Below, one piece after another: positions 41,876-45,131 of a stretch of 64,000 nucleotides of DNA (positions are counted from its first letter, which is position 1; every line of letters starts with the position of its first letter). Position numbers and translations under genes: made by a program. The DNA is from Escherichia coli (GTDB taxonomy: Bacteria > Pseudomonadota > Gammaproteobacteria > Enterobacterales > Enterobacteriaceae): NCBI RefSeq assembly GCF_003334355.1, contig NZ_QOWP01000003.1; one strand, 5' to 3'. Below the pieces are notes generated by a model that did no database searches, was not told the DNA's origin, and saw nothing but the letters and a program-made list of their open reading frames with translations.

Positions 41876-42913
41876 TTAACGCTTATCCGCCACCAGTTTG
41901 AGCGCGTGTTCCAGCACATTAATGTCTGCACCCGCTTTATGGGCATTTTCACTTAAATAACGCCGCCACTGCCGCGCGCCAGGAATACCCTGGAACAAGC
42001 CCAACATATGCCGGGTAATATGACCGAGATACGTCCCCTGGCTGAGTTCACGCTCAATGTACGGATACATGGCGCGCACTACCGCCACCGGATCGGCATC
42101 GATATCCGAGGAACCAAAGATCTCCCGGTCTACCGCCGCCAGAATACCCGGATTCTGATACGCCTCGCGCCCGACCATCACGCCATCCATATGTTGCAGG
42201 TGTGCTTTGGCCTCTTCCAGCGACTTGATACCACCGTTAATCGACATTGTCAGATGCGGAAAGTCACGCTTCAGTTGATACACACGCGGATAATCGAGCG
42301 GCGGGATCTCACGGTTTTCTTTCGGACTTAACCCCGAAAGCCAGGCTTTACGTGCATGGATGATGAACATCTCACACTCGCCTTTGCCGGAAACGGTGTT
42401 GATGAAATCGCAGAGAAATTCATAGCTGTCCTGGTCGTCGATGCCAATACGCGTTTTCACCGTCACCGGAATCGACACCACATCGCGCATCGCTTTCACG
42501 CAGTCGGCAACCAGCTGCGCATTACCCATCAGACACGCACCAAACATGCCGTTCTGCACCCGGTCAGACGGGCAGCCGACATTCAGGTTGATCTCATCAT
42601 ATCCACGCGCTTCTGCCAGCTTCGCACACTGTGCCAGCGCCGCCGGATCGCTACCGCCGAGTTGCAACGCTACCGGATGTTCTTCTTCACTGTACGCCAG
42701 GTAATCACCTTTACCGTGAATAATCGCCCCTGTGGTCACCATTTCGGTATACAGCAACGTATTGCGGGAAAGCAGACGCAAGAAATAGCGGCAATGTCTG
42801 TCCGTCCAGTCGAGCATTGGTGCAACGCTAAACCGACCACTCCAGTGAACGTCAGTTTTTTCAGGCATTGCGCTGGTTTGGTTGATTTTTTGCATTTCAG
42901 AATTACCGTGCAT
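41876..42913 (-). CDS. dusA: tRNA-dihydrouridine(20/20a) synthase DusA, 345 aa
   Basis: ATG at 42913 (ORF track starts at TTG 42919); FMN-binding Dus fold motifs. Confidence 0.9.
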
Positions 42914-43205
42914 TTTCAAATGTAGAGATTATTTTATCGATATATCATGGGGTTATGTTATTCAGCATCACTGTTCAGGAGGCTCAATAACGGGGTACTA
43001 TACCATAACAACAGGAAGCGCCTGTCTCATTGCAAAAGAAAATTGAGATCCTCTCAAGGCATGAAGCTCTCACGAAGTGATGGAAATAATCTTATTAGCC
43101 GTTAGCTTTGTTAAGGCCAATGATAAACAATCCAGGTTCGACGATAAATAAAAATCACACATTAAACTCCGGTGATATCTCTCCCTGCTAATAGCACTGA
43201 TAGAG

Positions 43206-43238
43206 AAAAAAAGAACCCAATAAGCATTGGGTTCTTTT
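43206..43238 (-). terminator. Terminator hairpin after yjbM (AGAACCCAAT/ATTGGGTTCT), A/T runs on both sides, possibly bidirectional
   Basis: 10-bp perfect stem with 4-nt loop; U-run on minus strand follows the yjbM stop. Confidence 0.75.
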
Positions 43239-43275
43239 ATGTAATGCCTTCCATACCATCGAAGAACTTCACATA

Positions 43276-44022
43276 TTATTTCTCCGATTTAACCCCGAAT
43301 AAATCATAAATTAATTTAGAAGTGTCTGTATATATTTTAATCTTTTCCTTTGAGTTTGGGTCAAACGACTTAGCAAAGTCAATTAATTTCGGTGCAGCAT
43401 CTCGCATTTTGCTTAAAATATCAGGGGCGAGCTTTCCTTCATTCACCAGATGTGACATCTTATCCAGATAGCCATCAAAATTCATTTCTCCCCCATCTGC
43501 CAGACGCTTCATCTCTCCCAGGTACTTCTTCATATCACGTTGAGATAACTCTTCAAACTGAGCTGTCAGATAGTTCTCATTATCATCATTAATATTCACT
43601 TTTTCTGCTCCTGCTAAATCTGTGTAGGCACTAGAGTATGAAAGTGAAATCAACAGCGAAGCGAATAATTTTAAGCTGTTGTCATCATATTCCTGACATG
43701 CATTAACAAACGTTAAAAAACCAGAACCTATTGCTTGCAAATGTATATTCGCTAAAGGTTCATTATCTTTAGATTCCTCATAAAAAAGCTGAACCGTGGA
43801 GGGAAGGCCATTCTTGGTTTCTACATCAAAAGTATATCGTTCTATGGGCGTTGCATCTTTATTATCCTCAGGATTACATATACTATTAATCGCAAAATGA
43901 AAAATAGCCCGATCAACAACTGATGCAATAAATTCACGATCGTTTAATTCCTCATCAGTGCAATCTCCAATATACTTATTAACCCACTCTTTGAGATTAG
44001 TTATTTGCTCAATTAAAAACAC
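43276..44022 (-). CDS. yjbM: Uncharacterised protein (248 aa from GTG start; true start uncertain), low-GC islet
   Basis: ORF only; no recognised domain; start overlaps 3' end of yjbL by 10 nt. Confidence 0.7.
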
Positions 44023-44297
44023 ATTTTTTTACGTGCATGCCATAAATTATGAGTGATTCTTTGAATAAACAAATCTATTTTTGCAATAATTATATCCCGA
44101 TGACGCAGCGCTGAATAATCAATAGACTTACCATATATATTATTTAATTTATCTTTGATTGTACCTCTATTATCTAATTTATCGTTGGTTGCATCTATAG
44201 TATCTAATTTATCTTTGGTTGCATCTTTATTATCGAATTGATTTGAATTGAGTGTTTTATTAAAGTATCCAGTTGCACCGGGTATTATCTTCAACAT
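44013..44297 (-). CDS. yjbL: Uncharacterised small protein (94 aa) with three tandem decapeptide repeats (DATxDKLDxx)
   Basis: ATG at 44297; three 30-bp direct repeats inside the ORF; about 30% GC. Confidence 0.7.
44136..44225. repeat. 3 x 30-bp in-frame tandem repeat within yjbL
   Basis: Units 44136-44165, 44166-44195, 44196-44225 (consensus TCTATTATCTAATTTATCnTTGGTTGCATC). Confidence 0.8.
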
Positions 44298-44615
44298 GAT
44301 TCATCTACCTTTTTTGTCGTACCGTGTCCTCCTTATAAGTGTTTTGCCATCTGGTAACTATCAAAAATCGCTCATAATTTTCTGAACTACAGGTATGCGA
44401 ACAACCCCAGTTAAATAAATAGCGAGTTAACTTGAAGCAATTTATTTAAAAATGAATTATTAATTATTATCGTGTTGATAATGGTACGACCAGGCAACAC
44501 AACACCTTACGTACAAAACAGAAAAGCAACATTACGGCAACAATAAGGGTTCTCGGTGTTTTTCCTGGAACATGGTAAAGTAAGGACATTCTTAACCCCC
44601 ACTTTGAGGTGCCCG

Positions 44616-45131
44616 ATGGAAAAGACCACAACGCAGGAGTTATTAGCGCAGGCTGAAAAAATCTGCGCGCAGCGTAATGTGCGCCTGACCCCACAGCGCC
44701 TGGAAGTGTTGCGCCTGATGAGTCTGCAGGATGGCGCTATCAGCGCTTATGATCTGCTTGATTTGCTGCGCGAAGCTGAACCGCAAGCCAAGCCGCCAAC
44801 GGTTTATCGCGCGCTGGATTTTCTGCTTGAGCAAGGTTTTGTGCATAAGGTGGAATCCACCAACAGTTATGTGCTCTGCCATCTGTTCGACCAGCCCACC
44901 CATACGTCAGCTATGTTTATTTGCGATCGCTGCGGCGCGGTGAAAGAAGAATGTGCAGAAGGCGTGGAAGACATCATGCATACGCTGGCGGCAAAAATGG
45001 GGTTTGCCCTGCGGCATAATGTGATTGAAGCACATGGGCTCTGTGCGGCATGCGTGGAAGTGGAAGCGTGTCGTCATCCTGAACAGTGCCAGCATGATCA
45101 CTCTGTGCAGGTGAAAAAGAAACCGCGTTAA
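44616..45131 (+). CDS. zur: Zinc uptake regulator (Fur family), 171 aa
   Basis: ATG at 44616 (MEKTTTQELLAQAEK...); CxxC metal sites; ORF-track start is upstream. Confidence 0.93.
   Translation: MEKTTTQELLAQAEKICAQRNVRLTPQRLEVLRLMSLQDGAISAYDLLDLLREAEPQAKPPTVYRALDFLLEQGFVHKVESTNSYVLCHLFDQPTHTSAMFICDRCGAVKEECAEGVEDIMHTLAAKMGFALRHNVIEAHGLCAACVEVEACRHPEQCQHDHSVQVKKKPR

Follow-up and report, generated by a model that had tools for sequence, protein, structure and literature searches.

The window analysed here, a stretch of 64,000 nucleotides from contig NZ_QOWP01000003.1 of Escherichia coli (assembly GCF_003334355.1), shares 92.8% identity with strain K-12 and carries, between the genes dusA and zur, a low-GC islet with a gene of the DUF2713 family. 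The genes around the islet run in the order pspG, dusA (minus strand, 41876..42919), the DUF2713 gene, zur (plus strand, from 44616), yjbJ and dinF. A first-pass annotation, made from the letters of the sequence alone, had described the islet as a two-gene module, yjbL-yjbM, of about 30% GC. The block is indeed low in GC (27-36%, with 27.7% in the yjbL part and 35.6% in the yjbM part) compared with about 52% outside it (51.8% and 52.3% in the 2-kb flanks), and only the figure itself was slightly low for the span as a whole, which has 33.6%. The gene and the features that belong directly to it are as follows.

43276..44297, minus strand: the whole DUF2713 gene, 1022 nt, here a frameshifted pseudogene in which one inserted A gives a 340-aa open reading frame (ORF)
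44013..44297, minus strand: the 5' fragment ORF, 'yjbL', 94 aa with an ATG start, covering the repeat-bearing N-terminal tail, predicted to be disordered, and the helix with which the predicted folded domain begins
43276..44022, minus strand: the 3' fragment ORF, 'yjbM', 248 codons from a GTG, corresponding to Pfam DUF2713
44024..44030, minus strand: the poly-A tract, seven A on the coding strand (A7), which is the frameshift site and has eight A (A8) in intact alleles
44136..44225, minus strand: three in-frame 30-bp units encoding decapeptides, within a Tandem Repeats Finder (TRF) array at 44132-44239
43209..43238, minus strand: an intrinsic terminator 38 nt past the stop codon, lying between an A-run and a T-run

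The two ORFs overlap by 10 nt, at 44013-44022, as had been annotated. The two-gene model itself did not survive: 43276-44297 holds one E. coli-specific, protein-coding DUF2713 gene, of which yjbL and yjbM are the two halves, and it has been inactivated in this strain by the loss of one A from the A8 tract at 44024-44030. With one A added, the window sequence reads as an ORF of 340 aa that has a single terminal stop. When the window was aligned with four other strains, the two ORFs fused into 340 codons where the run CGT-AAAAAAA-TG on the coding strand has eight A, as in EC554, and an A8 tract together with an uninterrupted 340-aa ORF was observed in strains EC554, E15 and PapRG-04-4. Intact genes of 318-320 aa are also found in NRZ14408, U1 and O157:H7, that of NRZ14408 being a divergent allele of 318 codons with no long A run. 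Intact DUF2713 genes are annotated in seven of the aligned alleles (L004, L008, L011, L017-L020), and the protein database contains mostly intact proteins of 318-340 aa, which align over 100% of the repaired query. Pseudogene status is already recorded in RefSeq, where K-12, NCTC9008 and others, a 99.8%-identical genome among them, have the identical span labelled 'DUF2713 family protein, frameshifted' by the Prokaryotic Genome Annotation Pipeline (PGAP). In EC554 (L002 1878-2900) the 340-codon ORF is uninterrupted, yet PGAP calls a 'DUF2713 family protein' and a 'partial' pseudogene there, a split that probably reflects evidence proteins taken from frameshifted strains. In the window, translation from the real start would end after 94 codons, the yjbL part, leaving the remaining 248 codons of yjbM out of frame. 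As the A7 tract is the sole lesion in this allele, one +1 event would restore the 340-aa protein.

The repaired protein matches Pfam DUF2713 (PF10897) with an E value of 1.3e-143, model positions 2-235 of 235 aligning with residues 105-340, so the earlier statement that no domain is recognisable was mistaken, the match being to a domain of unknown function. The Pfam model omits the first ~104 residues, including part of the predicted fold, apparently as a result of having been built on the K-12 YjbM fragment. An AlphaFold2 (AF2) model of the repaired protein has a predicted local distance difference test score (pLDDT) of 70.9 and a predicted template modelling score (pTM) of 0.70. Residues 1-63, which include the repeats, are predicted to be disordered, with pLDDT below 50, and are followed from about residue 64 to 340 by a helical domain with a small sheet. 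This domain crosses the break at residues 91/92, helix 67-85 of the yjbL part being included in it and the remainder running on into yjbM. In this strain no ATG opens the downstream ORF, the Met codon used in K-12 being GAG here, so that only a GTG remains; reading the sequence, we saw no Shine-Dalgarno-like purine run directly upstream of this GTG. The strong terminator noted at the end of the gene is also present, at 43238..43209, with a 13-bp stem, a 4-nt loop, a T-run and a folding energy of -15.7 kcal/mol (z = -3.96 against shuffled sequences).

The coding repeat was reported by TRF with a period of 30, 3.6 copies, 80% matches and a score of 146 at 44132-44239. Three units in perfect register, each encoding DATxDKLDxx, had been proposed; there are three complete units in frame and in register, but they are imperfect, with 24-27 of 30 nucleotides identical between pairs, and the third departs from the motif. 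Copy number varies from one to three between alleles, with three units in the window and EC554, two in K-12 and 162.2, and one in O157:H7, U1 and NRZ14408. Intact proteins in a large protein collection accordingly fall at 318/320, 328/330 and 338/340 aa, in steps of 10 aa, which bears out the suggestion that protein length varies between strains. Such length changes should be tolerated, since the repeat lies in the predicted disordered tail.

Comparison with strain Rb-3, in which dusA and zur are only 155 bp apart, gave the limits of the islet. The features concerned are listed below.

42826..44548, unstranded: the islet, delimited by comparison with the empty site, with 1723 bp in place of 133 bp in strain Rb-3 and 35.1% GC
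42809..42919, minus strand: the 5' end of dusA as present here, a putative surrogate of element origin that shares homology with the end provided by an Stx2d prophage and does not resemble the native N-terminus
42817..42809, minus strand: the putative attachment (att) core ATGCTCGAC, within the surrogate 5' end of dusA
44298..44548, unstranded: the AT-rich region upstream of the DUF2713 gene, which reaches to the islet's right edge (junction 44548/44549)

Homology between Rb-3 and the window breaks within dusA at about codons 31-37, and again at 44548/44549. The DusA N-termini on the two sides of this comparison differ, being MPAESHTVYPAYRFS in Rb-3 and another sequence in the window, and nothing in the window corresponds to the native site's 133 bp, the native dusA 5' end among them. 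We compared 80 zur loci from other species. Escherichia albertii, E. whittamii and the other non-coli Escherichia whose locus included dusA have the compact arrangement with the Rb-3 type of N-terminus, and more than 70 loci of other genera, including Citrobacter, Enterobacter, Klebsiella and Kluyvera, have a related native DusA N-terminus (…ES…FPAHRFS). None of the 80 loci contains a DUF2713 gene. The 'MH…K…TS[AV][MI]PEK' type of DusA was observed elsewhere only where inserted DNA separates dusA from zur. We also noted that dinF is annotated as frameshifted in Rb-3 (L005 6951-8275), the strain used as the empty-site reference.

An occupied site that still carries its element was found in the Shiga toxin-producing E. 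coli (STEC) strain 2014C-4135 (L021 1-45226, L022 13442-20501), where an Stx2d lambdoid prophage lies in dusA and adjoins the DUF2713 gene. Its tyrosine integrase abuts the restored dusA, and the 5' end that the prophage supplies (MHDNHETQKINQTSVMPEKTGVYWNSRFS) is clearly homologous to that of the window, with 85-92% nucleotide identity. A 105-bp dusA 5' fragment of the K-12 type remains in this strain beside the DUF2713 gene. The attR end of the same prophage holds a SocA/Panacea-type antitoxin gene and a gene for a 182-aa hypothetical protein. Twelve prophage contigs in IMG/VR show homology to the window that stops at 42810, inside the core ATGCTCGAC. Elements with dusA-specific integrases are known to restore the gene with a surrogate 5' end of their own (Farrugia et al. 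2015, PMC4482086). From the position at the att core, the surrogate 5' end like that of the prophages, the native type in the outgroups and the behaviour described in PMC4482086, we infer that the islet at 42826-44548 is the relic, now lacking an integrase, of a dusA-integrating element, either a phage or an island. The proposal of a horizontally acquired block with no mobility genes is thus upheld.

Such a history would begin with a phage or island whose dusA-specific integrase inserted it into the 5' end of dusA, at the att core, bringing the surrogate end with it. Later deletions would have removed the integrase, nearly all of the cargo, attR and the displaced native dusA 5' fragment, and what is left would be the surrogate end, the DUF2713 gene and an AT-rich promoter region bound by H-NS. 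In K-12 the spacer between zur and yjbL is one of 78 'promoter islands', a class associated with genes predicted to be foreign, and is bound by H-NS in all the data sets cited (PMC3661553 Table 1); an RpoD promoter mapped by systematic evolution of ligands by exponential enrichment (SELEX) lies in the equivalent K-12 spacer (PMC3946193). On the other side of the gene, 42920-43275 contains no ORF longer than 54 aa. Relics of a similar kind occur in Leclercia sp. 29361 (L058 357-1300) and Silvania hatchlandensis (L074 367-1400), which have dusA insertions without an integrase, ~0.9 kb more DNA than related genomes, a surrogate-type DusA N-terminus, a gene for a NadS-family helix-turn-helix antitoxin-like protein and a small RelE-like ORF, and Intestinirhabdus still has an integrase of 64% identity.

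Three apparent signs that the DUF2713 gene is carried by mobile DNA were followed up and set aside. The phage protein family phrog_29005 matches yjbM over its full length, but there was no match in 50,697 phage records and the family membership is an artefact of prophage boundaries. The 12 IMG/VR contigs that seem to carry the gene are all predictions of dusA prophages that overshoot into the chromosome past the homology break at 42810, and the matches labelled as plasmids are mislabelled chromosomes.

The frameshift was then viewed across the species. The gene is present in 4,145 of 5,426 complete E. coli genomes (~76%, by a search with the gene only), and about a quarter lack it. The state of the gene was called from span length modulo 3 in 60 rows taken at even steps down the ranking of 4,146 records, with 15 of the 60 checked by sequence, and roughly half of the copies proved to be frameshifted. 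About 25 of the sampled rows are intact and about 33 frameshifted, a class inflated by laboratory derivatives of K-12, and the remaining two are an IS1 insertion and a remnant. Among 20 aligned alleles, A7 was present in all 12 that are frameshifted and A8 in all five intact alleles that have this tract, the three other intact alleles having an interrupted run, ATCAAAAA or GAAAAAAA. The A7 tract thus recurs on different allele backgrounds and the A8 tract is a mutational weak point. In a neighbour-joining tree A7 alleles occupy five places, each nearest to an A8 allele; the A7 allele L010 differs by no substitution from the A8 alleles L002 and L011, and the A7 allele L009 by one from the A8 allele L008. 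Independent origins of A7 may on these grounds number from two to five, two being the minimum if short-patch recombination moved the lesion, since A7 sits on two local haplotypes. Only one A/T homopolymer of at least 8 occurs in the whole window, at 30451-30458, and with such runs this rare the A8 tract of the intact gene would be an unusual liability. Four of the 12 A7 alleles (L006, L014, L015 and L016) have gained further indels, downstream or upstream, as expected after loss of frame. Other, independent inactivations of this gene were observed as well, comprising IS1 insertions, IS1 together with loss of the greater part of the islet, and a remnant of 76 nt, in MLI023K1 (H1/H48), E47 (H14), O121 201805972 (H34) and E1624 (H107).

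Taken together, we consider it probable that the locus is a single DUF2713 gene with a recurrent A8 to A7 break, lying in the relic of a dusA element. Several observations weigh against this explanation or parts of it. A tblastn search with the prophage integrase against 42700-44700 found no integrase remnant (best E = 1.1), and no att repeat survives in the islet. A complete element with DUF2713 inside was not found, tblastn of the 50,697 phage records giving no match, and for this reason the standing of the gene as cargo is one that we infer from position and composition only. A search of PADLOC-DB 2.0 returned only PDC-M15B, at noise level (E = 0.008, 13.8 bits) and on the low-complexity N-terminal part, and no fold relative was found in the PDB or the AlphaFold database with a query model of moderate confidence (pLDDT 70.9). 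The H-NS and promoter data come from K-12 and not from this strain, and short-patch recombination might in principle have carried A7 from one allele to another, lowering the minimum number of origins to two.

A different view of the tract is that it belongs to a reversible, phase-variable contingency locus, in which the gene moves fairly often between an OFF state (A7) and an ON state (A8), the protein is tuned by the 30-bp repeat, and the A7 allele of the window is a regulated OFF phase and not a dead gene. The near-identical pairs that differ only in tract length (L010 with L002 and L011, L009 with L008) would fit such a switch, as would the combination of a coding tract with a variable coding repeat, the rarity of A/T runs of at least 8, with one in 64 kb, and the many A7 alleles, that of the window included, that have no other lesion. 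However, only A7 and A8 were seen and never A9, the downstream frameshifts gained by four of the 12 A7 alleles mean that no reversion is possible in them, and known phase-variable loci tend to have tracts longer than A8. We therefore regard regulated switching as unlikely, and favour recurrent loss at the A8 tract.

Is the intact gene then doing anything? Estimates of dN/dS range from 0.27 to 0.71, mostly 0.3-0.5, and several residues are invariant across relatives that are only 22-28% identical; the gene is, on this pattern of substitution, real and constrained. It also exists as sharply different types in one chromosomal slot. Between the window type and the NRZ14408 type, divergence is restricted to the coding sequence, which is 55-76% identical, with dS ~0.8, compared with 98-100% in the left flank and 90-96% in the right flank, and a third type (P0122), in the same slot of an E. 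coli-like contig, shares 49% identity with the window and 57% with NRZ14408. Allotypes with such sharp boundaries are a typical feature of proteins that face an antagonist. The family is very small, as a HMMER search of 1.84 billion representatives gave 53 matches, all of them DUF2713 fragments or a handful of distant relatives, and nearly all E. coli fragments. The distant relatives lie on contigs that are rich in insertion sequences or plasmid-like, with a PipB2/SopD2-like pentapeptide protein as the neighbour of one (P0149) and an AIDA-type autotransporter close to another, and neither P0149 nor P0156 was found on sequenced plasmids or in E. coli genomes. Searches of NCBIfam and of PDB sequences returned no match. 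Profile searches and structure prediction, the course recommended at the outset, have yielded the Pfam match and the predicted domain at ~64-340 but no relative of known function, and the view that the locus cannot be assigned to a known system holds, no characterised family matching it. With no such homology and with a repeat number that is not uniform, the picture of an uncharacterised, variable islet survives, while the gene model attached to it does not.

Two further candidates for what the sequences might encode were rejected. A SHOCT-like motif at residues 260-302 has E = 1.4e-6 on a short helix pair and no Pfam support. A type II toxin-antitoxin pair needs two small, separately translated and co-conserved genes, and these ORFs are fragments of one gene. 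We also observed that P0166, a DotG/IcmE/TrbI-like protein of 939 aa, has six tandem copies of a helix pair (…YAARLSQLVKEGKLTPEQAKKLL…) that resembles DUF2713 residues 260-302, with E = 1.4e-6.

We tentatively propose that the intact product would be a soluble accessory protein, silenced by H-NS, that faces some antagonist, with phage exclusion, addiction-type cargo or a secreted effector-like role as candidates. A protein useful only under certain conditions would be lost repeatedly. A stronger form of this idea takes DUF2713 to be a hypervariable 'conflict' protein, with a single-gene phage-exclusion or addiction function or as a secreted effector, and the window to be the OFF phase of a contingency gene. 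It draws on at least three allotypes, ~50-57% identical, in one slot with near-identical flanks, on H-NS silencing, on an A8/A7 tract that turns the gene off and possibly on, and on a repeat-tuned tail. In this combined form we find it doubtful. Taking the roles separately, and holding each view weakly, it may quite possibly be that the gene has no present function in most strains; a conflict or defence-type cargo is a tentative possibility; and a secreted effector-like protein seems rather unlikely, the resemblance to type III effectors being one of N-terminal composition and of one effector-like neighbour of a distant relative only. If the protein does act in conflict between phage and host, the locus would be a tractable model of conditional gene loss, and otherwise it is an ordinary decaying relic.

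The direction of the change at dusA could also be reversed, with the islet ancestral to E. coli and the empty dusA-zur arrangement arising by deletion, for instance when a phage integrated and was then removed together with the islet. With dusA an active phage site beside the islet, deletions spanning it are plausible, and partial deletions do exist (H34, H107). Against this, the empty arrangement and the native DusA N-terminus are common to E. albertii, E. whittamii and other Escherichia and related to those of Citrobacter, Enterobacter and Klebsiella, and the K-12-type N-terminal extension occurs elsewhere only where an element separates dusA from zur. We consider an ancestral islet very improbable, and retain acquisition through a dusA element.

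Equally hard to accept is recoding, in which A7 strains would still make the full-length protein by programmed -1 ribosomal slippage on AAA-AAA-A or by slippage of RNA polymerase. Judging by the sequence, tRNA-Lys slipping by -1 on A7 would give exactly the A8 protein, and runs of Lys AAA codons are slippery in E. coli. But the tract, which is preceded by a T, does not lie in the canonical X XXY YYZ frame, and the downstream sequence, which was read and not folded, is AT-rich with no evident stimulatory structure. The downstream frame is moreover unprotected, given the secondary lesions in four of the 12 A7 alleles, and intact alleles use one frame for the whole protein. Barely credible at all is a genuine two-gene yjbL-yjbM operon with translationally coupled, overlapping ORFs, the model of the usual K-12 gene list, for which the 10-nt overlap and the treatment of yjbL and yjbM as an operon in PMC12218254 and PMC3946193 can be cited, but which we reject because many strains have an intact 318-340-aa ORF, split and intact alleles differ only by A7 versus A8, the predicted fold bridges the junction, yjbM has no ATG in this strain and RefSeq marks the span as frameshifted.

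Reading the locus as one broken gene corrects the yjbL-yjbM gene model of the K-12 literature, where the pair has been counted as a two-gene operon of 'young' genes (PMC12218254), and affects knockout collections, operon statistics and studies of gene age. It also offers a natural experiment, an orphan gene lost repeatedly at one run of eight A and yet, in the ~40% of carriers where it is intact, maintained by purifying selection, with deep divergence between alleles that stays within the coding sequence. For dusA the consequence would be that in most E. coli, K-12 included, the 5' end of a housekeeping gene is the surrogate brought by a mobile element and not the native one. As 42809-42919 appears to be surrogate and not native Enterobacteriaceae sequence, the annotated 345-aa DusA would have an N-terminal extension of foreign origin. 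We found no paper that names DUF2713, and in the literature that could be searched we saw no description of where the islet and the dusA 5' end came from, of the recurrent A8 to A7 loss or of the allotype structure.

Several known systems invite comparison. The contingency loci of Haemophilus, Neisseria and Campylobacter similarly have a coding homopolymer that sets the frame, a tract that varies between otherwise identical alleles and a variable coding repeat; unlike them, the DUF2713 gene has a short A8 tract, a -1 state only and several OFF alleles that have decayed further. Effectors of the EspF/TccP type from enteropathogenic and enterohaemorrhagic E. coli (EPEC/EHEC) are likewise low in GC, variable between strains, equipped with variable peptide repeats and devoid of fold relatives. 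The DUF2713 protein shares with them a polar, disordered N-terminus whose first ~20 positions are free of acidic residues, and its distant relative P0149 lies beside a PipB2/SopD2-like protein. Its 10-aa repeats are, in contrast, not proline-rich, and it has no chaperone and no link to a secretion system, so that we take this as a resemblance only. The work on H-NS 'promoter islands' (PMC3661553) deals with the zur/yjbL spacer as the promoter region of yjbL and not with gene structure or origin. The last comparison is with the islands and prophages that use dusA-specific integrases. Although the islet of the window is 1.7 kb, immobile and reduced to one gene, with no integrase, attL/attR or displaced native fragment, it is like them in its position at the att core in the dusA 5' end, in the surrogate 5' end that it appears to have left on dusA and in its low-GC cargo.

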